Assembly (NCBI GenBank): GCA_023461435.1
Contig: JAEYLC010000007.1
Span: 1,127-65,126, forward strand
Source of the DNA: Bacillota bacterium
Lineage (GTDB): Bacteria > Bacillota > Clostridia > Christensenellales > SZUA-584
DNA length: 64,000 bases
Direction of reading: 5' to 3'
Below, piece by piece: positions 2,587 through 59,489 of this stretch (positions are counted from its first letter, which is position 1; the number at the start of each line of letters is the position of its first letter). A model generated the notes under the pieces. That model had not been told where the DNA came from, searched no databases, and worked only from the letters and a program-made list of their open reading frames with translations. A program made the translations under genes and the position numbers.

Positions 2587-2605
2587 AGTTCTCGAGGTGT
2601 CAATA

Positions 2606-3052
2606 ATGGTTGAAATACGGCCTATTACCGATGAAGATCAAGCTCTTGTTCAAAGCTTCTTGACGGCTTGTCTGCCCGAATCGAATCGAGCTTTTGAGCC
2701 GGATGGCAGGCATTGTAAGCTCAAGGACATCCAGCGGTATTTTAAACAATTTTGGTGCCTGTCTATTGACGGCTGTCTCGCAGGGACTGTGGGTATCAGC
2801 GAACTCAGCAAAACGGCGTGCGAATTGAAAACACTTTTTGTGCTCAAGCAGTACCACGGCAACGGTTATGGTGAGCAGCTAGCCCGTCATGCGATTGCGT
2901 TTGCGCAAAGCGCAGGCTATACGGATATCTATCTGGACACCATGTCAGAAAGCAAGGCCGTTATTTTTCTGTATAAAAAGCTGGGCTTTACCAAAACGGA
3001 ACGTTATAACGATAACCCCGTGGCCGATGTATTCATGAAACGCCGTTTATAA
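2606..3052 (+). CDS. GNAT family N-acetyltransferase
   Basis: ~148 aa with the acetyl-CoA binding pattern (VLKQYHGNGYGEQLARHAI). ATG 2606 lies 6 nt after GAGGTG and is preferred over GTG 2597. G+C is lower than in the upstream genes. Confidence 0.75.
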   Translation: MVEIRPITDEDQALVQSFLTACLPESNRAFEPDGRHCKLKDIQRYFKQFWCLSIDGCLAGTVGISELSKTACELKTLFVLKQYHGNGYGEQLARHAIAFAQSAGYTDIYLDTMSESKAVIFLYKKLGFTKTERYNDNPVADVFMKRRL

Positions 3053-3204
3053 TTCAGTAAAATAAATGTGACCATTCATAAATATGTAATTCCGCCCAAT
3101 CATCTTCATATGTTGGGCAGAATTACTCCCGGTTCCATACTTGGGGAAACCCTTCGCACGTTTCCTTGCACCTCCATAAATCATGTTCCAGACAGGAACA
3201 AATT

Positions 3205-4512
3205 TTAAACGGTCTGCTTGTATACAATATTATTAATATATCTTCGTTTCATTAACATATACAAGGCAACCTGAATCAGGATATAGATGGAATCCGCGCA
3301 TATACAATACGCCATTATCGTAACCGGCTTCGCCCTTATATTGTCCAGAGCTATAAAAGGGATGATGATAATAACCCCTAATATCAATGGTAAAAAGAAT
3401 AATGTTTTCAGCTCTAACGCAATATATCGTTTCACTTCCCGTTTGCAAATACCCATCCTAAATAGGTTCCGATACCTAATTCGTTCCCCTTCGATTTCTG
3501 AAAACAGTTTGAAATAGATAATACAGCCCACCGCAGCAAAGAATAAGGCTGCAATAAATATGGAGACAAAAAGAAGCATCATACCCTCCTGCAGACGAGA
3601 GCCAACACCTGTTAAATAGGCCGAAAACGATGTTCCCACAAAATACATGATGAGCGTGTTAAGGATGGTCATGATATATAGGGCTGTTTTGCTTCTCGTT
3701 AGTTTATATATCAGTTCACTGTAACCGAGTATATTCTGGTGATATAGACGCTTTTTTTCTCGAATTGCATCAAGAAGAATTGGCCCCAATTGAGTGACAA
3801 TCCAATATAACCCCAAGAAACACAAAATCGCAAAAATAACGGAATCTTCCGGAACATATATAATCTCATTGAATTTGATCGTAAAGGCTAGTAAAATCAG
3901 AATGCAGCCCGCAACCACAAGAATAGGACGTTTTCGCTCCGTAGCCTCGGTGCGACGAGTGTACCGTAGTAAATCACTGAGCTCGAGTTTCCTGACTTCG
4001 CGGTTGCTCCATAGTGTCAAGAATAAAAAAGTCGAAAGAAACACACCTATTGCAAACGCAAACTCAGCCACATTTAGACTATACTGAACCAAATCTTGCC
4101 CAAGCATATCAATAATCACCATAAAAAACAATCTGGAAAACAGGATTCCCGGCACTAAACCTGCGACGAGTGAAGCTGCTATGATCAATGTGTTTTCAAT
4201 CCGAATCACCCTGCCCATCTCTTTTCCGGTCACGCCGAGTGTAATAAACAGACCCATATTCCGATTCCTCGATTTTACAAAGGTCATGAAAGCATAACCG
4301 AGAAACATGACAGCAAAAACAGTTACGGCTATGACTGCGGTTTTCAGTCGGTCTTTAGTAAGAAAACTTATTGAATTTTGAATTTCATTATTGAACATAA
4401 GTGTGGAATACAAAAAAAGGATCATCACGGTACAGCTATTGCATATGAAAAAGGAAAGATATCGCCTTGCATGCATTTTAAAATCTTTTATGGCAATTTG
4501 ATTAAACGTCAT
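3205..4512 (-). CDS. FtsX-family ABC permease with BceB-like 10-TM topology but no large extracellular domain
   Basis: ATG 4512 overlaps the ATPase stop (ATGACGTTTAA, 4502-4512). Ten hydrophobic segments read by eye. The loop between segments 7 and 8 is only ~10 aa (TGVGSRLQEG). The ORF-track start at 4656 would overlap the ATPase gene by 155 nt. Confidence 0.75.
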   Translation of the reverse strand: MTFNQIAIKDFKMHARRYLSFFICNSCTVMILFLYSTLMFNNEIQNSISFLTKDRLKTAVIAVTVFAVMFLGYAFMTFVKSRNRNMGLFITLGVTGKEMGRVIRIENTLIIAASLVAGLVPGILFSRLFFMVIIDMLGQDLVQYSLNVAEFAFAIGVFLSTFLFLTLWSNREVRKLELSDLLRYTRRTEATERKRPILVVAGCILILLAFTIKFNEIIYVPEDSVIFAILCFLGLYWIVTQLGPILLDAIREKKRLYHQNILGYSELIYKLTRSKTALYIMTILNTLIMYFVGTSFSAYLTGVGSRLQEGMMLLFVSIFIAALFFAAVGCIIYFKLFSEIEGERIRYRNLFRMGICKREVKRYIALELKTLFFLPLILGVIIIIPFIALDNIRAKPVTIMAYCICADSIYILIQVALYMLMKRRYINNIVYKQTV

Positions 4513-5266
4513 ATCGTTCACCCCCCAATAGCGCAAGGCAATCCAATATCTGATCAAAAAAGGCCTTACGCGCTTCTTTTCGCCTGATTTCCAAGGATAT
4601 CGAACCATCGCGAATAAATACGATTCTGCTGCAATAGCTTGCAGAAAAAGGATCATGGGTGACCATTAGCAGCGTATTTCTTTTGACTTTGTTTATCATC
4701 TCCATGTATTGCATAACGGATTTTGCAGCCTTCGAATCGAGATTTCCCGTTGGTTCATCTGCAAATATAATTGCGGGATCATTGACAAGTGCCCTTCCGA
4801 TAGCCGCACGCTGCTGTTGTCCGCCGGATACGTTATTAGGGTATTTATCAGCAATATCTGTAATCTCCAAAAGGGATAAAATATACTCTGCCCTGACTTC
4901 AATATCGGATATGCTTCGCTTATCCAGTATCATGGGAAGTGTGACATTCTCCTTCATCGTCAAACTGTCAAGCAGATTAAAATCCTGAAACACATACCCC
5001 ATGTTTCTGCGCCGAAATAGGGCAAGCTCATCTCTGCCCATATCGTGTATACTCATACCACCAATCTCCACAGTACCACTTGTCGCTTTGTCCAGTCCGC
5101 TCAAAATATTCAGAAGGGTGGTCTTGCCGCTTCCCGACGGACCCATAATACCTAAGAATTCACCCTTTTCGACAGACAGATCAATCCCTTCAAGAGCCTT
5201 TGTTGAGGTTGTATTCTTTGTTCCCCCATATATTTTCGTTATTCCAGACATTCTCAATCCGATCAT
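4502..5266 (-). CDS. ABC transporter ATP-binding protein (MacB/BceA-like)
   Basis: Walker A GPSGSGKTT, signature LSGGQQQRAAIGRAL, Walker B IIFADEPTGNLD. The start is either ATG 5266 (MIGLRMSGITKIYGG) or the upstream 5311. Confidence 0.9.
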   Translation of the reverse strand: MIGLRMSGITKIYGGTKNTTSTKALEGIDLSVEKGEFLGIMGPSGSGKTTLLNILSGLDKATSGTVEIGGMSIHDMGRDELALFRRRNMGYVFQDFNLLDSLTMKENVTLPMILDKRSISDIEVRAEYILSLLEITDIADKYPNNVSGGQQQRAAIGRALVNDPAIIFADEPTGNLDSKAAKSVMQYMEMINKVKRNTLLMVTHDPFSASYCSRIVFIRDGSISLEIRRKEARKAFFDQILDCLALLGGERYDV

Positions 5267-5349
5267 ATTGCGTCTTTCACCTTTCATTTGTATCTTGCTC
5301 ATTTTATACAACCTGCAAGATGTCTGCCATTCATTAATATGACGAAAGA

Positions 5350-6366
5350 TTACGTTTTTGTAAGATATGTAATGGTCACTTCCGTGCCGCAGTCGGGTTT
5401 TGACTCTATATTCAGACGATGCCCGAGTTTGTCAGCAATTAAGGCGCATAGGTATAGGCCTATTCCCGTCGCATTTTTAACCTTTCTGCCGTTTTCTCCA
5501 GTAAAAAAAGGTTCAAATACCCGTTTCAAATCATATGGAGGTATTCCAATACCGTAATCTTTAATGGTCAATGTGGCATAACCGCTACGTTCGGCAATAA
5601 TGAATTGAATGTCTTTTCCTTTTCCATCAGCGCGGGAATATTTAATAGCATTTGAAACAAGCTGATCAATCAATATGTCGTTCCACTTGCTGTCTGTTAC
5701 CACAAGCAGTTCTTCCATCTCACACTCAATTCTTGGGAAAACCCGATTATAAATAAATTGCCGCTTCCTCAAATTTACGATCTTTCGAATCTCGAATATG
5801 AGATCAATACTTTCAGGAGCATAATCCTTAGAGAAATCACCAAGACGGATGATACTCAGCACCTGCTCCATTCCGGCGATAATTTTATCGTTTTCAGCTT
5901 GTATATCCCGGATTGCTTCTTGTGTATCCGGTTTTGTCCAATCTTGTTCTTGAATTATCAAACCAATAATTGAAGCGGGAGCCTTCATTGAATGGACCCA
6001 CTGTGAAAGAAAATAGTTCCGTTCTTTGTTTTCTTTTTGTATCACAGTTATCTTATCTATGTAAAATTGATGGATATTGTTAATGATCTCGGCAACTGTT
6101 TTATGCTCGAGCAATCGAGGATGTAAATCATAAAAAGGATTGGTAATACTTTGATATATGCCCCTAAACAGACTGTAATACCGCATCCATTGAATCACAA
6201 GAACAAAGATTAAAATGAATAATGAGATAGCAGCAGGGTAAACAATTTCAATGATTTTTCCGGTTGACAGGTGAAAAAAAAGTGTTAATAGTACGCTGCA
6301 AAGGAAATAACCTGCGATGAATATTAGCCGGTCGATAACAAAATTAATTAATATTCTTTTCTTCAT
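5350..6366 (-). CDS. intramembrane-sensing histidine kinase (BceS-like)
   Basis: Two N-terminal TM helices separated by a ~9-aa loop. H-box SQWVHSMKAPAS, N-box VSNAIKYS, G-boxes DYGIGIP and GIGLYL. Overlaps the regulator gene by 23 nt. Confidence 0.85.
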   Translation of the reverse strand: MKKRILINFVIDRLIFIAGYFLCSVLLTLFFHLSTGKIIEIVYPAAISLFILIFVLVIQWMRYYSLFRGIYQSITNPFYDLHPRLLEHKTVAEIINNIHQFYIDKITVIQKENKERNYFLSQWVHSMKAPASIIGLIIQEQDWTKPDTQEAIRDIQAENDKIIAGMEQVLSIIRLGDFSKDYAPESIDLIFEIRKIVNLRKRQFIYNRVFPRIECEMEELLVVTDSKWNDILIDQLVSNAIKYSRADGKGKDIQFIIAERSGYATLTIKDYGIGIPPYDLKRVFEPFFTGENGRKVKNATGIGLYLCALIADKLGHRLNIESKPDCGTEVTITYLTKT

Positions 6367-7075
6367 CTACATTGTCCAATAAACTGGAATCAAACATATA
6401 ACCCACACCTCGCTTTGTCTTGATCAACGCCGGAATTCCTAAACTGCTGAATTTATCCTTTAGTCTCTTTATATTCACAGAAAGAGTATTGTCATCTACA
6501 AAGGAAATATCATCCCATAGTTCCTCCAGAAGATCTTCTCTGGATACAATACGATCTTTTTCCATAATGAGCTTCCGAATGAGTTTGCATTCATTCTTGC
6601 TCAATTCGATCCTTTCATTCTTATAAAATAACTTAAAACTGCCTTCATCCAGCCATATCCCCTTAACTTGAAGATCGTTGCGAGATGCATATTCATCACA
6701 TCTTCGAAATATGGATTTTATTTTTGACAGGAGTATTTCTAAGTTGATCGGCTTTGTAATATAATCATCCGCACCCAGTTCCATACCTAACGCCTGTTCA
6801 GCGATCCCATCTCTGCCTGAGATCATAATAATTGGGATTCTTGTTTTCTTTCTGAAAACCTTACAAAGATGAAACCCATCAAAATAGGGAAGATTTATAT
6901 CCAAAAGAACCATGTGGGGGGTACACTCATTAAACTGCTCTATCACGTCCTCAAAATGATCGATAGCCCTAACATCATAACGGTATCGTATTAGATACTC
7001 CTTTATGTGCTCACGCAAGTATTCGTCATCTTCTATGAGCATAATCCTATACCCTTTATGGTCTGCACTTTTCAC
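6344..7075 (-). CDS. OmpR/PhoB-family response regulator (BceR-like)
   Basis: Receiver motifs IMLIEDDE, LLDINLPYFDG and YITKP. C-terminal winged helix (TKRGVGYMF). GTG start at 7075; ATG 7042 would truncate the first beta-strand. Confidence 0.9.
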   Translation of the reverse strand: MKSADHKGYRIMLIEDDEYLREHIKEYLIRYRYDVRAIDHFEDVIEQFNECTPHMVLLDINLPYFDGFHLCKVFRKKTRIPIIMISGRDGIAEQALGMELGADDYITKPINLEILLSKIKSIFRRCDEYASRNDLQVKGIWLDEGSFKLFYKNERIELSKNECKLIRKLIMEKDRIVSREDLLEELWDDISFVDDNTLSVNIKRLKDKFSSLGIPALIKTKRGVGYMFDSSLLDNVDEEKNIN

Positions 7076-7155
7076 GTTTTATACCTTACTTTTAAAATAA
7101 TAAAAACTTCTCAAATGGCAGCAGGATTGCTATTACTGTTAACCTGACAGACCGT

Positions 7156-8088
7156 TTATTCCATCAGCTCCAGCCCGAGATACTGAAAATGCATGGTATC
7201 AAGGCCCTCTTTAAAGTCTCCGCCCCACGTCCAGCCGTACTTTTCAAAAACAGCAATGACGCTTTCGGGAATATAATACGGCGAGCTCGCATTTCTTTTG
7301 TCCTTAACCCTGTAAAATAAATTATTCGCTTTGTTGATATCGATGCATGTCCCAAAGCTGTGCTGAGACAGATAAGGGTTTTTCCTGACCCAAGGCACTA
7401 CCATGCGGCGGTATCCGTAACCGGCAACCGTTTTGATCGGGAACTGTATATCAAGCGCATAAATCTCGTTGAAAATCGCCTGAACCTGAGCGGCCAGCTT
7501 GTAATGAATTTTTAACGACAGGCTTGACGGCACTTTCACTTTTTTGGATATCTTCCATACGGGCACAGTGACAGTGACTATATGCTTTGCAGCCTCTTTG
7601 CTGCCGTTATACCCCCACGGCGGCGACGTCATTTTATAGTACTTTGTTGTCGTGCCGAATATGTAGTTGTATCTGTCGTCACTGTTATCGAATATTGCCC
7701 CTTCAGCCGTCCATTCCTTGGCGGCGGGCGTTGTCAATGCACACACGTTGCCTTTGTATATGCCGGCTCGGGTACGCACAAACGCACAGTAATAATATGT
7801 TGTCTCAGGCGCAAGCCCTGTCACCAACACGTTCATCTTATCCCGTGCGACGGCTTTTGAAGCGATTTTCGTATCCAAAGCTTCAGGGCTCAGGCCATAG
7901 TAAAAGCCCTTCTCCCTGACTTTACTGTAAGCTGAGCTGGCACCCAATAATACTGCGCGGTCAGAATCGAGCACAATCGGGCCGTCTGTGTCCACAACGG
8001 GATCCGCCGCGGCGAACGCTGTTGTTGATGTGCTCAAAAAAAGTGCCGCCGTTATCACGACTGCCAAAACGAATTTTATTTTTTTCAT
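7156..8088 (-). CDS. secreted M15-family (VanY-like) D-Ala-D-Ala carboxypeptidase-type peptidase
   Basis: Signal peptide (AALFLSTSTTAFAAADP). Zinc-ligand motifs SQHSFGTCIDIN (SxHxxGxxxD) and GLDTMHFQY. Same strand as, and 80 nt upstream of, the response regulator gene. Confidence 0.7.
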   Translation of the reverse strand: MKKIKFVLAVVITAALFLSTSTTAFAAADPVVDTDGPIVLDSDRAVLLGASSAYSKVREKGFYYGLSPEALDTKIASKAVARDKMNVLVTGLAPETTYYYCAFVRTRAGIYKGNVCALTTPAAKEWTAEGAIFDNSDDRYNYIFGTTTKYYKMTSPPWGYNGSKEAAKHIVTVTVPVWKISKKVKVPSSLSLKIHYKLAAQVQAIFNEIYALDIQFPIKTVAGYGYRRMVVPWVRKNPYLSQHSFGTCIDINKANNLFYRVKDKRNASSPYYIPESVIAVFEKYGWTWGGDFKEGLDTMHFQYLGLELME

Positions 8089-8353
8089 CTCGTCACCCGT
8101 CCATAAACATTATTTAACCCCGTATATAACGGGCCTAATTATGGAACTATCTGTGTTGGCGATCATATATAAGCATAAATTATATATTAAATATATATAT
8201 GTATTAATTGGATGTCAACAATCGACAGCATGCGAGACACGCAGATAACGGTATTTTTCAAAAGCTCCAACTGTTCGACAAAAACAGCTGAACCCGTACA
8301 CAAACCGCCCCGGGTGATGGTATAATACCATCAAAACATACTAGGAGCGGATT

Positions 8354-9622
8354 ATGAAGCAGAAGCGCACCCTCCAGCAAAAGCTGGCCCTCAAACGCAC
8401 CAAAAAACCGCCCGCAATCATTTATCTCATACTCATCAACATCTGGCGGCTCGCGCTCAACAAAAAGCTCGGCATCCATTTTACATTCAATACGCGCCCA
8501 AGCCGGGATAAAAACCCGTACATACTGATCAGCAACCATGCGTCGCGCGTGGACTATCTGTACACCGCGCCCGCCGTGCTGCCGCATCGGCTCAACTATG
8601 TGGTGGGTTACAACGAGTTCTTCCGCTCTCACCTCTACCCGATATTCGCGCTGATGCACGCGATCCCCAAGCGCAATTTCGTGCCGGACCCGCACACGGT
8701 CCGGGAGATCATCCGCGTCATCCGTCAGGGCGGACGCGTCTGCCTGTTTCCCGAAGGCATGAGCTCGATATCGGGCGGCGGCCAGCCTTGCGCCGTCGGC
8801 AGCGGCAAGCTGTTAAAGTACCTCGGCGTCACGGTGTACTGCACGAAAATCGCGGGTGGCTATATGACCAACACCAAGCACTGCCTCGACCAGCGGCCGG
8901 GCCGCGTCGAGGTTGTGGTGGACAGGCTGTTCACACCCGAGCAGCTCCGCGAAATGAGCGCGGACGAGATACAGGATGTGCTGAACCGCGAGCTCGCGCA
9001 CGACGATTACCAGTGGAACAGGGAAGCGAGAGCCAGCTTCAACGGGAGCGGCGAGATGGCCAAGAACCTGCACGATCTGCTGTACCTCTGCCCCAAATGC
9101 GGCAGCGTTTATACAATGAGCGCGCAAGGCGATACCATCCGCTGCGAAGCGTGCGGCAACGGCGCCCGCATTAATGAGTACTACGATCTCGTGCCTCTTG
9201 ATGACAGCTGTGTGATCCCCGAGACGGTTTCCCACTGGTATCAGCTGCAGCGCGAGAAAGCCAAGGCGGAAGTCGCAGAAAATGGCTTTTCGTTCAGTGA
9301 GCGTGTGAAACTCGGGGTGCTGCCGGTATATAAACGTTTGAAGAAAGGCGCCACCTCCTTAATCGCGGGTGAGGGCGTGCTGTCGCTGTCACGCGAGGGC
9401 CTTAGGTTCGAGGGCACCAAGCACGGCGAACCCTTTTCGTTCACATTGCCGACCGATATGGTCCCCACTTATGGCATGTGCACCGACATCTCCCGGTTCT
9501 ATACGTTCTACAAAAGCGAGTTTTACGAATTCTATCCCGAACGAAACGACACGATGCGCTGGTTCCATCTGACTGAGGAGCTGCATCGCGCCTGCGGCGG
9601 CCAATGGCAATATTCTCTCTGA
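8354..9622 (+). CDS. PlsC-family lysophospholipid acyltransferase with a C-terminal zinc-ribbon-containing extension
   Basis: HX4D motif (NHASRVD) and FPEGMSS. The C-terminal ~190 aa contain CPKCG..x..CEACG. AGGAG lies 6 nt upstream of the ATG. Confidence 0.75.
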   Translation: MKQKRTLQQKLALKRTKKPPAIIYLILINIWRLALNKKLGIHFTFNTRPSRDKNPYILISNHASRVDYLYTAPAVLPHRLNYVVGYNEFFRSHLYPIFALMHAIPKRNFVPDPHTVREIIRVIRQGGRVCLFPEGMSSISGGGQPCAVGSGKLLKYLGVTVYCTKIAGGYMTNTKHCLDQRPGRVEVVVDRLFTPEQLREMSADEIQDVLNRELAHDDYQWNREARASFNGSGEMAKNLHDLLYLCPKCGSVYTMSAQGDTIRCEACGNGARINEYYDLVPLDDSCVIPETVSHWYQLQREKAKAEVAENGFSFSERVKLGVLPVYKRLKKGATSLIAGEGVLSLSREGLRFEGTKHGEPFSFTLPTDMVPTYGMCTDISRFYTFYKSEFYEFYPERNDTMRWFHLTEELHRACGGQWQYSL

Positions 9623-9889
9623 CCGTCAGAGAATGTACTTTTGGTCGTAAATGCATTAATAGCCGATAAGGAAAAGCTGAGTATATTTAACAAAAAAGGA
9701 TGAGATGTTTCGTCCTTTTTGTTTTGCTCAGCATATTTTGGGTATTAATATATTGGATACAATATCATGTATCAGCCTTCTGCATGGCATCGTACATTTG
9801 GAAGCGTAAAAAGGAGGACCGATTTTACGAGCAGGACTGCCCGTTTTTTATGTTAACACTAAAATTTACACTAAGGAGACCGAAACCAC

Positions 9890-12046
9890 ATGAAAATTCG
9901 AAGCATTAAAAAGAGCAAAATCAAACCAACCGAAACAAACGGCCAAGCGGGAATCGAATCTGTTAAAACCAAAAAAAACGGGGCAAAAAGAACAGGGATA
10001 AAAAAGAACGGAAAGCAGCGGCAGTCCTTTTTTTCAAACATGAGAATCGCCACAAAAATTTTGGCAGGCTTTTTGGTTGTGGCCGCTTTGAGCACGGCTA
10101 TGGGGATCTACGCGGCATCCAATCTTAAGGATATCAGCGCGTCGTCTAAAAAGATTTACGCCAACATTCTGCTTCCGAGCAAAACCATGTACGATCTGAA
10201 TCAGTCCTGTGAAGAATCTTGCAGAACGCTCAGGCAGTCGCTGCTGCTTGATGATGAAGACGACCTGACGCTCATGGCCGGGTTGTCCGAGATTACAAAA
10301 AACCTTGAGGAAATATCGCTCGATTTTTCGACGATCGAATCCTTGATTCCTTCCGATAAGTCGGAGGCTTATCAAACAGCAAAGCAATCGTATGATGCGT
10401 TTGCTTCGCTGCTCCAAACTGCCGTTCAAAGCATTCAAAACGGCAACAAGCAGGATGTGATAAACGATCTGACAAACAGCGGGGATTTAAAGCAAGCGGA
10501 AAGCAGGCTGAGAGACGCTCTTGGCGACCTGATGTTCGCAATCACCGGCGATGCGTCCGGCATTGCCACAAAAAATGACAGAACAAGCGAAAGTGTATTT
10601 CTCATCACAGTCACCGCTATCGGCGCCGTGCTTGCGCTTTCCTTGCTGATCGGGATCATCATATCCCGGGGTATCAGCCGGCCTGTCAAAAAGCTGACAA
10701 GCAACATTATGCGTCTCGCCACCGGAGAAACCGATATTGACATCGAAACGGTCAAAACGAAGGATGAGGTGGGCCAGATGCGTGAGGCGGCCCGCACAAT
10801 TGTCGGCACGATCAAAGAGCTCGAAAAGGACACCGAAATGCTCGCTTCGGCAGCCGCGGAGGGGCATCTCACCGTTCGGGCCGATGCCGGCAAGCATCAA
10901 GGCGCCTATCAAAAAATCGTCGATGGCATGAACGCCACGCTCGACGCGATGAACGCACCGATCAGAGAGTCGGCAAAGGTGCTTGAGGATCTCGCCAAAG
11001 GCAATCTGGACGCCGCCGTCACAAGCGAATTCAACGGAGATTTCGCTTTGATCAAGCACGCGCTCAACGAAACGATCAAAACGCTCAAAGGATATATCAG
11101 CGATATCACATATGTCCTCGGAGAAATGGCCGAGGGTGTACTCACCGTGAAGATCGACTCAGAGTATCAGGGAGATTTCGCGGCGATTCAAACGGCAATC
11201 AACAAGAACATTGAATCCTTTAACAAAGTGCTCGCCGAAATCAACATCGCCGCCAGAGAAGTCTCTTCGGGCACGGAGCAGGTATCCGAAAGCAGCCAAT
11301 CGATATCGCTCGGGGCTTCGTCTCAGGCTTCGGCACTCGACGAGCTCTCGGCAACCGTTTCGCAGATTGCCGAACAAACAAAGAGCAACGCACAGCGCGC
11401 TCAAAAGGCCAGCCATCTTTCGCTTGAGGTGAAGGACAGCGCAATCAACGGAAACGAGAAGATGAAAGCGCTGCTCGACGCCATGAAGGACATTGATAAC
11501 GCCTCCGCGAGCATCTCCAAAATCATCAAGGTGATCGACGATATCGCATTCCAAACGAATATTCTCGCGTTGAATGCCGCTGTTGAGGCGGCACGGGCAG
11601 GAATTCACGGTAAAGGCTTTGCGGTTGTGGCGGAAGAGGTTCGCAATTTGGCGGCCAAGAGCGCGGAGGCCGCAAAGGAGACGGCTGTTCTCATCGACGG
11701 CTCTATCAAAAAGATCAAAGCAGGCACCGAAATTGCCGACGTCACAGCCGATGCGTTCGGTGAGATCGTCAAAAGCATAGAGACAACAGCGAGCCTGTCG
11801 AACGAAATATCGGTTTCCTCGAGCGAGCAGGCGGTCGGCATCAATCAGGTCAACAACGGCATACTGCAGCTTTCCGATGTGGTTCAAAGCAACTCGGCCA
11901 CGTCTGAGGAAATGGCGGCTTCTTCGGAGGAAATATCCGGGCAGGCGGCCCTGCTCAAGGACATGGTGGGCCGGTTTGCTCTTGAAGAAACAGGCAGCAC
12001 AAGGCCCTCATATGACACGGAAAGCACAAAGCTGCTCGAAGAATAA
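9890..12046 (+). CDS. methyl-accepting chemotaxis protein
   Basis: TM segment, HAMP-like repeats and the signalling hairpin [23 protein letters not shown] Lys-rich 50-aa N-terminal extension makes the start ambiguous (9890 with an AGGAG RBS, or ATG 10040). Confidence 0.9.
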
Positions 12047-24359: not shown

Positions 24360-25403
24360 TCAATATATTTCAACATTATCATTTTCAGATATTTCTTGAT
24401 ATTTGCTGATCAATGCACTAATTTCATTCATAAGTGACTTCTTGTTGGTGTAATTCACTTCTGATAGACTGTTGAATTCTAAGCTCATAAGTTTCATCAT
24501 GAAGCCTAAATCCCATTTCATATTTTTTAGATATAAATTGAATTGATAATTTGCGAATTTTATATCTCGTTCAGACCAAAACGAATAGCCACCCAGTATT
24601 TCATTAATAACTTCTTGATTCTGTCGATCAAACGTGTTTAAAATTCTGTCGTATTCTTCTGGCGTTTCAGCTTTATTGATTAACTTGTCTTTTTCTGATA
24701 ACGAATAAAATTTAAACTTATTTAGCGTATCAATTGCCCCAATCATTGTATCTTGCACTGAAGAATCGTCTATGTCTTTAGAATCTCCGTATTTTTTTAT
24801 TTTCAAAAGATTAAATTGTATTGCAAGAATAAAAATATAAACAGACTTTGTTACTTTTTTATCTAGTATATCATTAAGACTCTTATCGGATAAATCAATG
24901 ATAATAAAACGTTTTTTGGGAGTACTTTCATTGATATGAAACCATTCATTTTTTGGATATGTCGAATCATTTCGAATACTATCTTCTATTGATTCATTCC
25001 CATTGATCCTTGCTAAAAGATGCGAACGAGTAATATTCAATTCTTTAATTTGATTATTAAATTCATCAACTAACTCTTCAGGAATTGGTATCAGCCTTTC
25101 TACTGTATCAAAATTTTCAAACCAAAGTTGATTTTCAATTTCTTCACGAGTATATTTAAACTTCAAAGTAGCAAATACTTCTTCTATTATTTCATCAAAT
25201 GACGAATTTCCTTTTGTGATATATTCTAAAACATCAAAAAGCATATCTCTATCCAGTGATTGTATTTCACCACTTTCGAGCTTAGATATATATGCAGGAC
25301 TTTTTTTTAAATAAGCAGCCAAGTCTTTAGATAAAATTGAATTTTGTATTCTTATAGTTTTTATCAATTCGGCTAACTGGCTTGTAACTTGAACTTTAGC
25401 CAT
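24360..25403 (-). CDS. XRE-family HTH protein with a ~280-aa C-terminal helical domain of unknown function
   Basis: N-terminal HTH (ILSKDLAAYLKKSPAYISKLESGE). GGAGG lies 8 nt upstream of the ATG. Very AT-rich coding sequence. Confidence 0.7.
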   Translation of the reverse strand: MAKVQVTSQLAELIKTIRIQNSILSKDLAAYLKKSPAYISKLESGEIQSLDRDMLFDVLEYITKGNSSFDEIIEEVFATLKFKYTREEIENQLWFENFDTVERLIPIPEELVDEFNNQIKELNITRSHLLARINGNESIEDSIRNDSTYPKNEWFHINESTPKKRFIIIDLSDKSLNDILDKKVTKSVYIFILAIQFNLLKIKKYGDSKDIDDSSVQDTMIGAIDTLNKFKFYSLSEKDKLINKAETPEEYDRILNTFDRQNQEVINEILGGYSFWSERDIKFANYQFNLYLKNMKWDLGFMMKLMSLEFNSLSEVNYTNKKSLMNEISALISKYQEISENDNVEIY

Positions 25404-25726
25404 AGATATGTCCTCCTCAACTGAATGTGCAATTATACCATTTTTTTAAGGTTAGGTCAAGTAATTTACCGTATTAATGTAAAGTTAATATATCACTCAA
25501 TTAATTTACTCAATTTATTTATTTTTTATTGACTTATGGAATAATTTAATATACACTGTATACGAAAGAGACAAATGAAAAAGCCATGCTACGAACATGA
25601 CTTCTTCAGGTAAAATTATTGTAAAAAACTACGCCAATATTGGTATTATACCAAATAATCTGTAGAATGCAATTCATTACCGCATAATAGTTTCTTTCAA
25701 AAATTTATTAATAAAGGAGAACTATT

Positions 25727-26638
25727 ATGAAACCGATGATGAAACACCACGTCACACAAGAATGGAAACTTGGATCAAAGGGACATGAACAGTATGACTT
25801 CATTGATGTAAATCTTAGCGATGACAATCTACTTTTTATCGATCCTTGCAGAATTGAAGAGAGCAACCATCCAATTGCTAAACAATGTGTTGCAACAATA
25901 ATTTCTTTCTTTGATATGTTTTTCATTGCATATCGTAACAGAAGCCAAGAGCTTAAACGAAGTATATTGTCGCATGCATCAGAAGAGAATAGCACGTACC
26001 TCGGATATGGATATCCTGGCAAAGGCAATACCGCTGATGGATTAATTAAAACTTTTGCACCATTAGACAAATTAATCGAATCAATACCTACAATAAATGT
26101 CGCACAAGACCTCCCAGTTCTTTTAGCTGGATTTGCAGAAGATGGTTTGTCCGACTTAATAACAAATATAATACATATTGAATTAAACGAATATACACTT
26201 AAGCAAATGTCCCGTTACGGAAAGCATCCAACTAGTATTACAGACTTTTATTCATGGAACGCTAATACTCAATCGTGGCAATTGTATACTGACCAACCTT
26301 GCTACATTTATAAAAACAAGCCAATAATGCTAGTACCAAAAGAATTTGTTAGAAAGAACTTTTTATTTAGCGCATCCCAATATATGCACAGGATTATAGT
26401 CGAAAGAATCCGCGAAGAAGGTGGCGGATATGATCCTGATGGTAAACCCATTCCAAAAACTTATTATCTCGAGCACTGCATTCCACACGATTCGGAGAAC
26501 TGGATATATGAAGAAGTATTGAAATATACTAAGGAGCATCCCGATGCATTGAGCGAATATCATGATAAATTACCTGATTTTTATTTTGAAAATCGCAAAA
26601 GAATTAATGACGATGTTTTAGACGAAGTAGTATATTAA
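25727..26638 (+). CDS. hypothetical 303-aa protein with no motif I can recognise
   Basis: AAGGAG lies 8 nt upstream of the ATG and two hairpins follow the stop. AT-rich and divergent from the HTH gene. Confidence 0.65.
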   Translation: MKPMMKHHVTQEWKLGSKGHEQYDFIDVNLSDDNLLFIDPCRIEESNHPIAKQCVATIISFFDMFFIAYRNRSQELKRSILSHASEENSTYLGYGYPGKGNTADGLIKTFAPLDKLIESIPTINVAQDLPVLLAGFAEDGLSDLITNIIHIELNEYTLKQMSRYGKHPTSITDFYSWNANTQSWQLYTDQPCYIYKNKPIMLVPKEFVRKNFLFSASQYMHRIIVERIREEGGGYDPDGKPIPKTYYLEHCIPHDSENWIYEEVLKYTKEHPDALSEYHDKLPDFYFENRKRINDDVLDEVVY

Positions 26639-54156: not shown

Positions 54157-55023
54157 ATGAGACAAACGAAACCTTTTATCCGTATTACCGCTATATTTGC
54201 GGCGTTTATGACAGTGGCGCTGCTGTGCCTTGCACCTGTCATAGCCAGAGCGGAAGACAATTCCCCGATCGGCGTGGCGGTCTGCATCGCGAAAAAAAGC
54301 GTGAATTTGCGCAGCGAACCCTCGGCCAAATCCAGCATTGTTGCCAAGCTTCCGGCACGCGCCTTTGTGAAGGTGTACGCGCAGTCGGACAAATGGTATC
54401 AGGTGGAATACAACGGCATGATGGCCTGGGGAGACAATTCCTCTCTGGTCTTTGCGGCAAACCCGGCTGACAGTATGACGGCCGAGGGTACAGACCGAAC
54501 CTATACCCTGTATTATCAGGGCGATTCAGAGTGGAAATTCTCGCGCTCTGTTGAAAAAAAAGCCTGCCTGATGTCCTCGTACGCGATCGTCATCAACAAC
54601 ATGGGCATTCCGGCTAACCCGCGATTCATCTACGAATCAAACCGCAGAAACACCTCGGTGAAATCTTCGGGGCTGACCACCAATTTCGGCGTCACACCCG
54701 TGTGCGCACTCGGCGCCGACTCACCATATCTTAGCCGCTTTGACGGAGAAAAAACCTATATCGCTGATCCGAAAAACAACGGCTTGGCTGCCATCAAACA
54801 GGCCATTGACCGGAATCCGGAAGGCGTGATTTGCTATTTCAAAAAGGGCAGCAAAGCCCACGGAATCGTCGCCTGCAAGTATGACGGGGATACCATTTAT
54901 TTCAGCGATGCGGGCCGTGACAGCGGCGCGCTGCTGACCTTTGGTGACACATGGGTATCCTACAAGCATAGATTGACGTATGCGAATCTGAATTTTGTAG
55001 CGGCATTGGATCCCGTCGCGTAA
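54157..55023 (+). CDS. secreted SH3b-domain protein with a C-terminal papain-like (C39-like) peptidase domain
   Basis: Signal peptide. SH3b pattern (VNLRSEPSAKSSIVAKLPARAFVKVYAQSDKWYQVEYNG). Candidate Cys (CLMSSYAIV) and His (HGIVACKYDG). Confidence 0.55.
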   Translation: MRQTKPFIRITAIFAAFMTVALLCLAPVIARAEDNSPIGVAVCIAKKSVNLRSEPSAKSSIVAKLPARAFVKVYAQSDKWYQVEYNGMMAWGDNSSLVFAANPADSMTAEGTDRTYTLYYQGDSEWKFSRSVEKKACLMSSYAIVINNMGIPANPRFIYESNRRNTSVKSSGLTTNFGVTPVCALGADSPYLSRFDGEKTYIADPKNNGLAAIKQAIDRNPEGVICYFKKGSKAHGIVACKYDGDTIYFSDAGRDSGALLTFGDTWVSYKHRLTYANLNFVAALDPVA

Positions 55024-55064
55024 ACGACAGAGCAAGAAAATTGCCATTGTAATACGGAAACAAG

Positions 55065-55090
55065 AGGAGCCGACAGGCTCCTTTTCGTTT
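55065..55090 (+). terminator. intrinsic terminator after the SH3-peptidase gene
   Basis: AGGAGCC-GACA-GGCTCCT stem followed by TTTCGTTT. Confidence 0.75.
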
Positions 55091-55094
55091 GCTG

Positions 55095-55883
55095 TTATCT
55101 CTGCCCTACTGGCTTTGTCATAGTGCCTTCTTTAATATGATATTGTATTTTTCGTTTTTCACAATAGTCAATAACTAGTCTGGCTTGCTCATTATAGAAT
55201 TCACGATTATTTTTATAAGCACTTATGTCTCTACTGTAGTTCGTTCGTCCAAATATAATCTTATCTGTGAACGAAACCACATCTAGTATCTTACTCAAGC
55301 TTTGCTCAATTAAGTTAGGCGTTGGAAATGGTTCTATACTTACCCAAGTTTTATATCCTTTATCATGTAATGTTTCCAAAGATGAAAGGCGTTCTTTGTA
55401 AGAAGCAGCTCCTGGTTCAATCTTTTCACGGTACACTTCATCTAAAGAAATCAACGTAATTCCATACTCGTTATCTTTCGAAAACGTTCCCAATTCTAAG
55501 GGCAATATACCTTTTGTAAGAATTGTGCACTTTATATTTGCCATATTTAACATTTCTATAGCCGCAAGACTCATATCCTTAATCTCGTTATAACCATACA
55601 TGAAAGGGTCGGTCGTAAAACAAAGATGTACTGACTGTATTTTAGATTTTAAACGTGGAATCTCTTTGTCCAAAATATCCAATGTATTGCTTACTAAATA
55701 TGGCTCAATCCATTCCTCATATGAAGCGACCTTTCCAAAACGCTTAGCCATCATGAATGCATAACAAGGATACTTACACCCATGTGAACACCCCAGTATG
55801 TGGTTTATTGTATAATCGCCATATTCGACATTTGTTTTGTATAACATTGTTTTTCTTTCAATGTATCCTTTAACGATTTTCAC
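55095..55883 (-). CDS. three-Cys-motif (Cx3Cx3C) radical-SAM-like protein, SplB/COG1533-related
   Basis: GCSHGCKYPCYA sits where SplB-like enzymes have GCxHxCxYCYA. The GTG start lies 9 nt after AAGGAG and overlaps the upstream stop (GTGA). Very AT-rich. Confidence 0.7.
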   Translation of the reverse strand: MKIVKGYIERKTMLYKTNVEYGDYTINHILGCSHGCKYPCYAFMMAKRFGKVASYEEWIEPYLVSNTLDILDKEIPRLKSKIQSVHLCFTTDPFMYGYNEIKDMSLAAIEMLNMANIKCTILTKGILPLELGTFSKDNEYGITLISLDEVYREKIEPGAASYKERLSSLETLHDKGYKTWVSIEPFPTPNLIEQSLSKILDVVSFTDKIIFGRTNYSRDISAYKNNREFYNEQARLVIDYCEKRKIQYHIKEGTMTKPVGQR

Positions 55884-57109
55884 AACAATTTACTCCTTAT
55901 TGTCACGCGTTGTTTCTTACTTTCTGTAAATGTTCGACTAGGATGATTTCCCTCAGTCAGTTTTGGTTCACGTGTAACTTGTATCTCTCCGCTATCCTCC
56001 ATGTCCTTCCATATACTTTTAATAACACCCGACTTGCATAATACTCCGTGTTCTGTATAAAAAGAAGCGAGCAGTTTATCAACTGTTAACCCATTAGAAA
56101 AATTCATCAAAAAGGCCGTCATCTTCTCACGAATTTCAGGTTTACTTATTATTTCGTTCTCAATATTTTGATCAAACAAGCTTAACTGTCCACATTGTTG
56201 AATATCTATGAATAATTCATCAGAACGTGATGCCATGTTATCAGCCATTAAGACACAACCATGTTCGTGATTACTGACGTGTATCATCCGATATTTTGGG
56301 CGTTGTCCCGATTTCATTCGAATAGGCATATCAAGTACATATTTATAATTCTGTCTTAGCCGCCGCTTGTACTCTGTTGAAAACCGCTTTTCCGCCTCAT
56401 ATCCATTAATCGCTCCAATCTGATAATCCTTAACAATTGCATGCCAGTAATCACCACCCGCAATTCTATTAAGCAATGCCTCAGATTGACAAGATGCATC
56501 AACTTGAGTTGGTTCATATTCAACTATTTCGTCTAAATTTAGCAATGCCTCGTCATGTTGATATTCAACCCGTTTAACCCTGCACGCATCCCTAAAGAAG
56601 CCGAACGAGTTCATATTTATTAATATTTCGATGCTATAAAATCCATATGACGCAAACCTATCAAATAACATGGAATCAAGCGCTTTTATTCCGTATGGAT
56701 CAATATATAGAAAAATATTGGTACCTTTTTTATCTTTTATAAGATGTTCAATTTCATCCTCATACCGACCAGATATTACTTTTGGGTAACCATTGATATT
56801 AGAATAACCTGCTATATTTGTTTTTAGATCTTCAGCATAATTGAGGTCAATAAAACACGTATCTATTTTCGCGTTTTGAAAAGTTGTCAATCCCAAACAT
56901 TTGTCCCGTATTTGAAGGGCAATCTGGGGAGACCCGGGACTACCATCATCGAATTTTCCTTTACCCGCAAAGCAATCTATGTAATATATTGGTCGGCGGG
57001 TCATTAAAACCTTTTGAAAATATTGAGGAAGATAGCCGCTAAGAAGTCGATCTTTTATTACTGACCAGTTATTTTTATTTTTAAAAAAAGTACTGTTGTC
57101 CTTTGCCAT
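55880..57109 (-). CDS. tcmP: three-Cys-motif partner protein (TcmP-like), methyltransferase-fold N-terminal domain
   Basis: YYIDCFAGKGKF (motif I-like) and FLYIDPYG (DPPY-like). The N-terminal pattern K..L..YL..Y matches my recollection of TIGR04474. Coupled to the Cx3Cx3C gene. Confidence 0.6.
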   Translation of the reverse strand: MAKDNSTFFKNKNNWSVIKDRLLSGYLPQYFQKVLMTRRPIYYIDCFAGKGKFDDGSPGSPQIALQIRDKCLGLTTFQNAKIDTCFIDLNYAEDLKTNIAGYSNINGYPKVISGRYEDEIEHLIKDKKGTNIFLYIDPYGIKALDSMLFDRFASYGFYSIEILINMNSFGFFRDACRVKRVEYQHDEALLNLDEIVEYEPTQVDASCQSEALLNRIAGGDYWHAIVKDYQIGAINGYEAEKRFSTEYKRRLRQNYKYVLDMPIRMKSGQRPKYRMIHVSNHEHGCVLMADNMASRSDELFIDIQQCGQLSLFDQNIENEIISKPEIREKMTAFLMNFSNGLTVDKLLASFYTEHGVLCKSGVIKSIWKDMEDSGEIQVTREPKLTEGNHPSRTFTESKKQRVTIRSKLL

Positions 57110-57299
57110 ACCTAATCCCTTCCACCTAATATTGCATTACTTCTATTTGATTGCATATATATTATCTATTATATCAAGTTTGGCAGTAATAACAATTTTA
57201 TTCTTTTTCATTAGAAACTCTGATTAGGTCAAAGCCTTTATTGTTAAATTTATATGTAAGTTAATTCTATTGGCTTCTAACTGACTAAGTTTTGTATAT

Positions 57300-59489
57300 C
57301 TAGCTTTCCCTTCTCAGCTTCGCTCTGAAGCTGATGCTCCTTTGTGTCCCGAGCTCGTCAAACTGTATAATGTACGCCGACTTCACCTGATCGATATCCA
57401 CGATTTCGCCCGCGCCCATCACGCTGTGCACCACGCGGTCGCCAATGCGGAAGGCTTCTCTTTCCGCTGCCGATTCGAGGCTTCTTTCGCTGCTGCCAAT
57501 GTGCCAGCTTGATTCGGACACGAGGCTCTCGCTCAATTCTTCGGTGTAATCAATAAGGCCCTTGTCCACATTGAATATGAAGCGCGACGGATATCGGAAC
57601 GAGCCGTCAAGGTTACGCCCTTCGGCGTCCGTGAGAAAGAGCGAAACTTGAGCCCGCGTGAACGCGACAAAAGCGAGCCTCCGCTCCTCCTCCATGCCTT
57701 GGGGCGTGGCGGTCTTTTTAGACGGGAACAGACCTTCCGAGAGCCCGCATATAAACACGTGCGGAAACTCAAGGCCCTTGGCCGTGTGCACGGTCATCAG
57801 CTTCACCGCGTTTTTGACGGACGCCGCGTCCGTATTGGTCAGCATCGCCACATGCTTCAAGTAATGCTCGAGCGTCACTTCCTCGCCGCATGAGGTCTCA
57901 TATTCATACACCGACTGCTTGAGCTCCGCGAGGTTGTCGAGCCGTTCCTGACTGCCCTCGGTGCGCAGCAGCTCCTCATAGCCGCTCTGGTCGAGCACGG
58001 CGCTCAGCAGCTCGGAAACGGGGCTGTCCTGATAGAGCGACGAAAATTTCTCGATCAACGCCAAAAACCTCTTGGCCTTCGTGTTTTTGAATATCTCGTC
58101 GTCCACCGTCCGCTCGAGCGCGCTGTACAGCGAGCACTGATGCTGTGCCGCGTAGTCCTGCAGAAAACGCATACGCCGCTCGCCGATGTTGCGCTTCGGC
58201 GCGTTCGCAATGCGGATGAACGACAGATCATCCCTGAACGCGATGAGCCTTAAATACGACAGCGCATCCTTGATCTCCATGCGGGAAAAGAACTGCACGC
58301 CGCTGTAAATGGTGTACGGAATCTCCCGCTTTAAAAAAACCTCTTCGAGAGAGCGCGATACAAAGTGTGCGCGGTACAGTATCGTGATGTCACTGAGCTT
58401 TACACCGCCATACAAAAGCTCTTCAGTCTTGTCGGCGATCCACGCGGCTTCGGCTTCCGCCGTTTTCGCGTGGTGATAGACCACGGGCGCGCCGTCCGGC
58501 AAACACGCAATCAGGTTCTTTTTCACGCGCGTCTTGTTTTTATCGATCAGCGAGTTGGCCGCGGCGAGTATCTGCGGCGTGGAACGGTAGTTTTGCATCA
58601 TCATGATGGTGCGCACGTCCGGGAACGCCATGTCAAAGTCGAGTATATATTTGACGCTCGCGCCGCGCCACGTGTAGATCGTCTGGTCCGGATCTCCCAC
58701 GATGAAGAGGTTCTTATGATAATCGCAGAGCACCTTCATCAGCGTATACTGCAGCTCGTCGATATCCTGAAACTCGTCGATCATGATGTATTCGAGCCGC
58801 TGCTGCCATTTGAGGCGGATATCCTCGTTGATATTGAAAATGTGCAGCGTGTATTTGATGAGGTCGTTGTAATCAAGCCCGAAGCATTTTTTCTGCTGGT
58901 ACAGATAGCCCCAGAATATGATATCGTCCGTTTCCGCCGCGTTGAGATATTTTTGATGCAGATCATCGAGCGGCATCGCGATCATATGCGCGTAGTAGTT
59001 CGGCTCTTTATCGAGCTTGCGTATCTCGATCATGTCGCGCGCGTCTGAAAACGTCATATGGCGCAACGTGAGACCGCGCTCCTCGTAAATGATCTTAAGC
59101 ATCGAATCGATATCGGCGTTGTCGAGCACGAGAAAGCTCTTGGGATACTGCACGGCGAAGCTCTCCTCCTGCAGCACCGAGACGCAGAAGCTGTGAAACG
59201 TGCTGATATAGCCTGTGTCGTTGTCGCTCGTGAGACGGCGGATGCGCTGACGCATCTCGTTCGCCGATTTGTTCGTGAACGTAACGCAAAGTATGTGGGA
59301 CGGCATGATGCCGATCTCATTTACAAGATAAGCGAACCGGTGAGACAGCGCGCGTGTTTTGCCGGAGCCTGCGCCCGCGATCACGCGGATGAAGCCTTCG
59401 GTCGCCGTCACGGCCTCCCGCTGCTGTTCGTTCAATCCCCCGAGAATGCTGTCCACCTTTGTCACCGCCTTATCTATCGTTTTTCTCAT
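57300..59489 (-). CDS. UvrD/PcrA-type ATP-dependent DNA helicase
   Basis: GAGSGKTR, IDEFQDID, VGDPDQTIY and TVHTAKGLEF. C-terminal Tudor-like GDRVVHSVMGAGEIV. ATG 59489 is preferred over 59531. Confidence 0.9.
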   Translation of the reverse strand: MRKTIDKAVTKVDSILGGLNEQQREAVTATEGFIRVIAGAGSGKTRALSHRFAYLVNEIGIMPSHILCVTFTNKSANEMRQRIRRLTSDNDTGYISTFHSFCVSVLQEESFAVQYPKSFLVLDNADIDSMLKIIYEERGLTLRHMTFSDARDMIEIRKLDKEPNYYAHMIAMPLDDLHQKYLNAAETDDIIFWGYLYQQKKCFGLDYNDLIKYTLHIFNINEDIRLKWQQRLEYIMIDEFQDIDELQYTLMKVLCDYHKNLFIVGDPDQTIYTWRGASVKYILDFDMAFPDVRTIMMMQNYRSTPQILAAANSLIDKNKTRVKKNLIACLPDGAPVVYHHAKTAEAEAAWIADKTEELLYGGVKLSDITILYRAHFVSRSLEEVFLKREIPYTIYSGVQFFSRMEIKDALSYLRLIAFRDDLSFIRIANAPKRNIGERRMRFLQDYAAQHQCSLYSALERTVDDEIFKNTKAKRFLALIEKFSSLYQDSPVSELLSAVLDQSGYEELLRTEGSQERLDNLAELKQSVYEYETSCGEEVTLEHYLKHVAMLTNTDAASVKNAVKLMTVHTAKGLEFPHVFICGLSEGLFPSKKTATPQGMEEERRLAFVAFTRAQVSLFLTDAEGRNLDGSFRYPSRFIFNVDKGLIDYTEELSESLVSESSWHIGSSERSLESAAEREAFRIGDRVVHSVMGAGEIVDIDQVKSAYIIQFDELGTQRSISFRAKLRRES

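Follow-up and report, generated by a model that had tools for sequence, protein, structure and literature searches.

What do two AT-rich genes do that lie between a core helicase gene and a core SH3 gene in a member of the Bacillota? We analyzed a 64,000-nucleotide stretch of contig JAEYLC010000007.1 (assembly GCA_023461435.1, forward-strand positions 1,127 to 65,126; hereafter the window), in which two genes on the minus strand, tcmP (55880–57109; 409 amino acids) and then a gene for a radical S-adenosylmethionine (SAM) protein that we call rSAM (55095–55883; 262 amino acids, GTG start), overlap by four nucleotides (GTGA, 55880–55883) and are translationally coupled. A sequence-only reading of this DNA had singled out the pair, and we found its open reading frame (ORF) coordinates, the GTGA overlap and the Shine–Dalgarno sites where it had placed them, and the motifs GCSHGCKYPCYA, YYIDCFAGKGKF and FLYIDPYG in the translated proteins. 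TcmP proved to be a TIGR04474 three-Cys-motif partner protein, and rSAM a relative of the SplB/COG1533-like branch of radical-SAM enzymes. We propose, with moderate confidence, that TcmP and rSAM act on nucleic acid as a complex and alter it chemically, and that the modification plays a part in conflict between hosts and mobile elements.

The gene pair is acquired cargo

Across positions 55000–57400 the G+C content (GC) drops to 0.33–0.40 (about 35% for the segment) versus 0.52–0.60 on both flanks, which confirms the compositional contrast that had suggested a discrete acquired cassette. To place this segment in its genomic setting, we compared the interval with that of relatives whose helicases were either 88% identical to that of the window (L084 and L086) or in the same 90%-identity cluster (L125 and L126). 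All four had the same order of genes: ArsP, thioredoxin, a pyridine-nucleotide oxidoreductase and/or a HIRAN protein, the helicase, a variable interval and, on the opposite strand, the SH3 gene. The interval contained genes for an AraC regulator and a PNPOx-like protein in L084 and L086 (L084:10152–11998), for a GntR-aminotransferase and EamA in L126 (L126:8149–11242), no gene but ~520 nucleotides of non-coding DNA in L125 (L125:8152–8612), and the TcmP–rSAM cassette in the window (55086–57305). On the helicase side the homology between the window and its relatives ended at 57306, just beyond the helicase stop codon, and on the SH3 side it ended at 54994 (L084/L086) or 55085 (L125/L126), so that the homology breaks coincide with the boundaries named in the sequence-only reading, the terminator on the SH3 side and the stop codon of the helicase. 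The stops at 57306 and 55085 therefore delimit an insert of 55086–57305. Because the interval has four alternative contents, including an empty site, this segment is horizontally acquired cargo in a variable hotspot between the core helicase and core SH3 genes, as the idea of an acquired cassette had anticipated.

The insert ends at a bidirectional intrinsic terminator hairpin (55062–55085, both strands) that is common to the convergent SH3 gene and is conserved in the empty-site relative L125. Because the L125/L126 homology extends through the hairpin, it is core sequence that the cassette borrows. All contigs encoding identical proteins had the layout of the window. Among homologous pairs the GC stays at 30–47% although the hosts reach 59–64%, and DNA similarity between cassettes is limited to the two ORFs, with an upstream limit at 57119. 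At the cassette itself we found no integrase or transposase gene, and a search for flanking repeats and att-like sites returned only short chance matches, the same outcome as the sequence-only reading. The helicase-to-SH3 interval is a recombination hotspot in its own right, for which close relatives show four or more alternative contents, and we found no repeats or recombinase that would account for the exchange.

The adjacent helicase had been put forward as a host factor that the pair might recruit. It is an ordinary PcrA/UvrD-type gene, syntenic and kept in relatives with or without the cassette, and we rejected it as a recruited factor or partner.

A radical-SAM protein with one residue inserted in its cluster motif

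Both a family search and a structural model supported the assignment of the smaller protein to the radical-SAM superfamily. It scored 42.8 bits on PF04055 (gathering threshold 29.5), and its AlphaFold 2 (AF2) model (predicted local distance difference test [pLDDT] 74) has a partial (β/α)6 TIM-barrel core, the fold of the radical-SAM core. Foldseek matched this model at probability 1.00 to SuiB, LipA, HydE, viperin, spore photoproduct lyase and the pyruvate formate-lyase activating enzyme, with SuiB at the top (E 8e-6).

The putative cluster motif, GCSHGCKYPCYA (residues 31–42; 55758–55793, minus strand), comprises Cys32, Cys36 and Cys40, spaced Cx3Cx3C by the insertion of Pro39, and thus departs from the canonical CX3CX2C of the superfamily. 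Other non-canonical Cys spacings are found among radical-SAM enzymes. The spacing is shared widely: the protein has more than 7,700 homologues, and GCxHGCxYPCYA was present in all 120 of the closest (70–77% identical). When 1.84 billion cluster representatives were searched exhaustively with a profile, 2,942 relatives were recovered, and among the best 150 of these, 80 had Cx3Cx3C and 21 the canonical Cx3Cx2C (for example, GCSHGCNYCYA). An alignment of 45 full-length representatives and the window protein comprised 31 Cx3Cx3C and 15 Cx3Cx2C sequences. The sole difference between the two groups in the motif region was a single Pro before the third Cys, so that the motif falls, as had been suggested, where SplB-type enzymes carry GCxHxCxYCYA, with one Pro extra. 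The three Cys, whose conservation among homologues had been set beforehand as a test, were 100% conserved in both groups, as was His34. In the same 46 sequences W58, D92, L122-T123-K124, G141, E156, R165 and P185 were nearly 100% conserved, whereas Cys88, Cys119 and Cys241 were not universally conserved. Because no universal Cys accompanies the three of the motif, there is no sequence sign of an auxiliary cluster; we considered such a cluster, and an RlmN-like two-Cys mechanism, and found neither supported.

Within the superfamily the protein stands apart from the curated families. On the SplB-like models Rv2578c, PA0069 and mobile pair B it scored 46, 45.5 and 39.7 bits, respectively, versus cut-offs of 430, 360 and 410, and on DUF5131/Gp37Gp68 (PF07505) it scored 24.3 bits, just under the threshold of 28.9. 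Of the three-Cys/TcmP pair that the sequence-only reading had named, the TcmP half stood, whereas the partner is not a classical DUF5131 three-Cys protein, in which the spacing is Cx6Cx2C. Judged by its sequence, rSAM belongs to a sister SplB-like radical-SAM family and not to DUF5131.

TcmP has a predicted methyltransferase fold and amino-methyltransferase-like motifs

TcmP scored 111.6 bits on TIGR04474 (cut-off 53), with residues 15–293 aligning to profile positions 2–260 of 263, which establishes the proposed family membership. Pfam returned no family match, its methyltransferase models included. The AF2 model (pLDDT 85; predicted template modeling [TM] score 0.85) consists of a Rossmann-type class I methyltransferase core, a helical insert at about residues 168–254 and a C-terminal domain that is a predicted winged helix (residues 323–406; 55892–56143, minus strand) of three helices and a two-strand wing. 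Searches of the Protein Data Bank (PDB) with this model using Foldseek retrieved only SAM-dependent methyltransferases, the best by E-value being the tRNA m2,2G enzyme Trm1 (3axs, E 1.5e-4) and the best by superposition the rRNA m6A enzyme RlmJ (TM score up to 0.56 on the target), with MnmM a further match. Model and matches both bear out the methyltransferase fold and winged helix that had been read from the sequence. A viral structure library returned generic methyltransferases only, TRM13-like proteins among them, and sequence searches of the PDB with the TcmP and rSAM family profiles found nothing even at E 1–10.

The TcmP proteins that accompany window-type rSAM fall into classes of ~405, ~373 and ~279 amino acids that share less than 20% mutual identity and all pass TIGR04474, at 83–197 bits. 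The predicted winged-helix domain is absent from the 279-amino-acid class in the class alignment. This short class scored highest, above the TcmPs paired with DUF5131 (122–131 bits); because it outscores them, the curated family clearly covers the partners of window-type rSAM. Despite their divergence all classes retain K19, D45, G51, D137 and P138, of which D45 and G51 lie in motif I (DCFAGKG, residues 45–51; 56957–56977, minus strand) and D137 and P138 in a motif IV-like DPYG (residues 137–140; 56690–56701, minus strand). Conservation is nearly complete at Y26 and G59, and in every class β2 closes with an acidic residue. Fold, motif I glycine, acidic residue after β2 and motif IV loop are those of class I SAM-dependent methyltransferases, as far as sequence and model indicate, and the residue pattern is the one to be expected if the SAM-binding site works and the DP[Y/F] loop is like that of amino-methyltransferases. 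Trm1 and RlmJ are exocyclic-amine RNA methyltransferases with a catalytic DP(P)[F/Y], which the invariant DP[Y/F]G of TcmP resembles; the two share only ~10% identity with TcmP, which differs from them in having a winged helix and a radical-SAM partner.

The two genes occur as a unit

To learn whether the two genes occur together elsewhere, we surveyed 185,579 species with one genome per species, which yielded 364 rSAM relatives, and examined the loci of the best 80 (66–76% identical to the window protein). Their hosts belonged to the Bacillota, Bacteroidota, Spirochaetota, Desulfobacterota, Synergistota, Verrucomicrobiota, Actinomycetota and Alphaproteobacteria. A co-oriented TcmP gene lay directly upstream of rSAM in 77 of the 80 loci, mostly with an overlap of 4 or 13 nucleotides, and the same was true of 33 of 34 viral loci. 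TcmP is likewise encoded next to a three-Cys radical-SAM-like protein in the window, where the overlap is 4 nucleotides. In addition, two natural proteins, P0364 (634 amino acids) and P0377 (592 amino acids), join TcmP, a winged helix and rSAM in one chain; both pass TIGR04474 and both contain the Cx3Cx3C domain.

Some loci depart from the one-to-one arrangement. Tandem TcmP genes (~379 and ~289 amino acids) precede a single rSAM gene at L070:4893–6942 and in the viral contigs L106–L114 and L122, and these loci usually continue into a Type III-like restriction-modification (R-M) system. This arrangement fits a division of labor in which TcmP is an exchangeable substrate-handling subunit and rSAM the constant catalytic one. 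Two further architectures were seen among the relatives of rSAM: P0365 (1002 amino acids) fuses it to an N-terminal region of ~740 amino acids that lacks a family match, and P0409 (509 amino acids), a distant relative with the canonical motif, has a tail resembling the helix-turn-helix (HTH) of sigma-70 region 4.

Homologous pairs often adjoin DNA methyltransferase genes and occur in phages

The surroundings of homologous pairs proved variable and rich in R-M genes, and the pairs themselves sporadically distributed, as the sequence-only reading had stated. Recurrent neighbors were Type III Mod and Res, HsdM, C5 and N4/N6 methyltransferases, Eco57I-like proteins, the MvaI/BcnI nuclease and an HhH-GPD glycosylase. 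R-M genes lay within 6 kb of the pair in at least 36 of the 80 loci, and within 300 nucleotides in 17 loci; of the 60 loci whose downstream sequence was long enough, 25 had them within 3 kb on that side. We classified the first downstream gene by Pfam family in 104 genome and viral loci and found a DNA methyltransferase in 29 (~28%), comprising N6_N4_Mtase in 20, N6_Mtase in 6 and the C5 DNA_methylase in 3. ResIII, Methylase_S (HsdS) and Eco57I each followed the pair in three loci; GmrSD, MvaI_BcnI, HhH-GPD and T5orf172 each in two; and SMODS in one. The association of the pair with DNA methyltransferase and restriction genes is thus strong and polar. At two loci (L090:8846–10867 and L092) the gene directly downstream encodes a GmrSD-type enzyme, a Type IV restriction enzyme that depends on modification, a proximity that is noteworthy if the pair makes a DNA modification.

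In IMG/VR, 34 viral or prophage contigs carry the pair, and in 9 of them Type III R-M genes lie downstream. Upstream, and divergent from the pair, 18 of the 34 encode a ~640-amino-acid protein that combines an ImmA/IrrE (M78) peptidase-like region with an HTH at its C terminus and weakly matches CapP, and 5 also encode a small Cro/C1 repressor. ImmA/IrrE-HTH and Cro-like regulators resembling CapP/CapH are found upstream in 7–8 genome loci as well, the ~640-amino-acid protein being encoded at L056:4635–6614, L013:5410–7302, L017:6667–8607 and L072:6493–8364. In some loci a small HTH_26 repressor separates this protein from the pair, and the arrangement looks like an inducible switch.

One of these contigs (L120, IMGVR_UViG_3300042279_000557) is a genuine phage genome, in which positions 1679–11967 encode, in order, a ParB-fused DNA methyltransferase, a SAM synthetase (MetK), an HNH nuclease, a 373-amino-acid ORF, TcmP, rSAM, a 107-amino-acid ORF, TerL and the portal protein; the 373- and 107-amino-acid ORFs have no Pfam match. 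Close relatives were almost absent from collections of cultured phages and plasmids, in which we found two unverified fecal contigs, one of them with the customary island layout. The GenBank contig labeled 'UNVERIFIED Bacteriophage sp.' (L088, MT836112.1) encodes TcmP, rSAM, a 739-amino-acid ORF and a 971-amino-acid ORF in the layout of R-M-linked bacterial loci, and we saw no obvious phage genes in it; it may be a misclassified island.

Relation to known systems

The nearest counterparts of the window pair are the pairs of TcmP and DUF5131, such as that of Streptomyces collinus pSCO1. Their TcmPs belong to the same family (112 bits for the window protein, 122–131 for those of Streptomyces), and they, too, are sporadic, mobile two-gene modules. 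Both kinds of radical-SAM partner have an N-terminal cluster region of the form '(V/I)E(W/Y)...N...GC...CYA...AKR', to which BLASTP similarity is confined (~40 residues). The partners differ in spacing, which is Cx6Cx2C (GCDRVSSGCDNCYA) in the DUF5131 proteins of Streptomyces plasmids and Cx3Cx3C in window rSAM, and in gene order, which varies in the Streptomyces pairs but is fixed, TcmP then overlapping rSAM, in window-type pairs. TcmP thus has partners with at least two confirmed Cys spacings in one N-terminal context. RadicalSAM.org places DUF5131 and spore photoproduct lyase in neighboring superfamily sub-clusters.

With the SplB/COG1533-like enzymes (spore photoproduct lyase, Rv2578c, PA0069 and 'radical SAM mobile pair protein B') rSAM shares its branch, its core fold and a GCxHxCxYCYA-type motif with an invariant His, but it falls far below their curated cut-offs, carries the extra Pro, is shorter (262 amino acids) and has an obligate TcmP partner. 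COG1533-type genes have been listed among nearly identical genes common to different gut genera. Both window proteins also match, weakly and over their N-terminal parts only, the A and B components of the PADLOC models PDC-M30 and PDC-M41 (A, E 1e-11; B, E 4e-6). These models are among 145 'guilt-by-embedding' candidates within BREX, DISARM and Type I R-M (Payne et al., bioRxiv 10.1101/2024.01.29.577857), and homologs of the window pair likewise occur at or inside R-M loci. Our literature search found no phage assay of PDC-M30/M41. The name TcmP occurs in the searchable literature in gene tables only, for example for an S. meliloti gene beside the Hna defense helicase, and DefensePredictor makes no mention of radical SAM.

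A proposed nucleic acid–modifying complex

The sections above show that the cassette was acquired, that its products belong to the two families and have the folds and conserved motifs described, that the genes are obligately paired and at times fused, and in which genomic context they occur. From this we infer complex formation in the window organism, substrate, chemistry and biological role as follows. The two products would most likely constitute a single enzyme complex whose substrate is nucleic acid, most probably DNA. In this complex TcmP would be the substrate-handling subunit, offering a SAM-binding class I fold and a winged helix for nucleic-acid binding; its invariant elements, DxFxGxG, the acidic β2 end and DP[Y/F], are similar to the ones found in exocyclic-amine base methyltransferases, and it may present a base and possibly N-methylate it. 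As a [4Fe-4S]/SAM enzyme, rSAM would then use a 5′-deoxyadenosyl radical to carry out a second step on the presented base. In wybutosine synthesis the class I methyltransferase Trm5 acts first, and the radical-SAM enzyme TYW1 then elaborates the N-methyl group on the same base. We take the logic of this sequence as a working analogy: homology to the window pair is at the superfamily level only, and TYW1 has a second cluster whereas the rSAM family has no universally conserved Cys beyond the three. The modification could be a protective, or self, mark or part of a defense, and such a role in the conflict between host and mobile element would explain why the pair travels with R-M genes and in phages. 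A more specific form of this proposal, which we advance only tentatively, is that the pair installs a novel radical-derived DNA base modification, in which a base presented or N-methylated by TcmP is elaborated by the 5′-deoxyadenosyl radical to give phages and mobile elements an extra self or protective mark alongside R-M methylation. If true, epigenetic or anti-restriction chemistry would gain a new class, one that occurs in many phyla.

Several points weigh against a DNA-modifying complex. In the rSAM model the Cys loop, the putative binding site of a SAM-cleaving cluster, is of low confidence. rSAM proteins that are ~70% identical nonetheless pair with TcmP classes that are less than 20% identical, which is unusual for a tightly co-evolved complex. 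The closest structures to TcmP are RNA methyltransferases, at the level of fold only (E ~1e-4, TM score at most 0.55), and RNA could therefore be the substrate. No R-M or other defense gene adjoins the cassette in the window, nor is an R-M system, in the sense of a cognate methyltransferase and restriction endonuclease, encoded in or next to it, so that for this cassette the argument from context holds by homology only. Adjacency to R-M genes is, moreover, equally expected of an independent defense system residing in defense islands. Finally, the literature on TcmP, DUF5131/Gp37Gp68, PDC-M30/M41 and COG1533 contained incidental mentions only, and we found no functional study.

It is possible, though less likely, that the pair is a stand-alone anti-phage or anti-plasmid defense that does not mark self DNA, with TcmP sensing infection or foreign nucleic acid and rSAM as the effector, which would damage the nucleic acid of the invader or the cell or make a toxic nucleotide analogue as viperins do. 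The proximity of homologous pairs to R-M Types I–IV, to a GmrSD enzyme and to a SMODS gene, the Hna helicase beside the S. meliloti TcmP gene and the CapP/CapH-like regulators upstream in genome and viral loci all speak for such a role, as do the matches to PDC-M30/M41, although these are weak and to candidates that were themselves predicted by embedding. Viperin is among the structural matches of rSAM, but it matches no better than other radical-SAM cores do. TcmP, for its part, keeps a full catalytic-looking methyltransferase site and not the degenerate fold of a sensor, and in the bona fide phage the pair sits beside a SAM synthetase and a DNA methyltransferase and ahead of the terminase, a typical site of self-protection. 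Given this phage context, the intact TcmP site and a window cassette that encodes no effector, we favor modification over a purely abortive defense.

We consider it unlikely that the complex modifies RNA instead, hypermodifying a tRNA or rRNA base to counter, for example, anticodon nucleases or ribosome-targeting toxins, or to reprogram translation during conflict. The best structural matches of TcmP (Trm1, RlmJ and MnmM, with TRM13-like proteins in the viral library), the precedent of a tRNA pathway in Trm5 and TYW1, and a weak TYW1 match of the distant relative P0409 point in that direction; the structural matches are at fold level only, however, spore photoproduct lyase, the one characterized member of the SplB/COG1533-like branch, works on DNA, the tight polar linkage is with DNA methyltransferases and restriction enzymes, and winged helices more commonly bind double-stranded DNA. 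A further reading is a housekeeping DNA-repair enzyme of the SplB type with an accessory protein: JGI labels homologues 'DNA repair photolyase / SplB', the protein is weakly similar to Rv2578c and PA0069, and spore photoproduct lyase is among its structural matches. Scores about ten-fold under the curated cut-offs (46 versus 360–430 bits), the return of 364 relatives from 185,579 species genomes, the absence of the pair from the closest relatives of the window genome, the foreign GC, the obligate methyltransferase-fold partner and the setting in R-M islands and phages make this reading very improbable. We give still less credence to a cassette that matures ribosomally synthesized and post-translationally modified peptides (RiPPs), since the best Foldseek match, the RiPP enzyme SuiB, covers the common radical-SAM core only; at 262 amino acids rSAM is too short to hold a SPASM or RRE domain, a precursor-like ORF was not seen, and no locus had a linked transporter or protease.

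The window instance is ordinary for its family, and the interest lies in the family, which is large and strongly conserved (>7,700 rSAM homologues, ~70% identical across phyla), named in databases and functionally uncharacterized. The fixed location of the pair directly ahead of DNA methyltransferase genes, whatever the R-M type, the phage and MetK context, the fusions and the one-residue motif variant make it a well-defined candidate for a new nucleic-acid modification chemistry or a new defense mechanism. The Pro insertion poses a clean question of radical-SAM enzymology, namely whether Cx3Cx3C binds a SAM-cleaving cluster, and as a 2.2-kb unit of two genes the cassette is small enough for direct cloning.

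Expression signals and other islets of the window

The cassette forms an operon complete in itself, which brings a promoter-like site and two coupled genes and uses the terminator of its neighbor. The ribosome-binding sites, both on the minus strand, are AAGGAG for the rSAM gene (55893–55898) and GGTGGAAGGGA for tcmP (57116–57126). The best promoter-like site lies on the minus strand at 57168–57195, ~60 nucleotides upstream of the tcmP start, and consists of TTGTTA, a 16-nucleotide spacer and a TG-extended TATAAT (10 of 12 matches plus the TG extension); because the total of such sites in the region was not above that in shuffled sequences, it is the position and quality of this candidate that single it out. 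It falls within an AT-rich leader of ~190 nucleotides (57110–57305, minus strand) that is unique to the window genome. The leader had no Rfam match and no stable fold (folding z-score −0.11), and its sole small ORF, of 22 amino acids, starts upstream of the promoter-like site and is not a credible RiPP precursor.

Two other low-GC segments were seen in the window. At 24360–26638, between GC-rich core genes, a second strongly AT-rich islet comprises a minus-strand gene (GC 0.28) for a 347-amino-acid HTH_3 protein and, divergent from it, a gene (GC 0.36) for a 303-amino-acid protein for which Pfam gave no match; the islet may be another acquired two-gene module. At 3205–7075 a block with a GC of 0.37–0.39 encodes an FtsX-like permease, a histidine kinase and an OmpR-type response regulator, and looks like an acquired peptide-sensing or resistance module.

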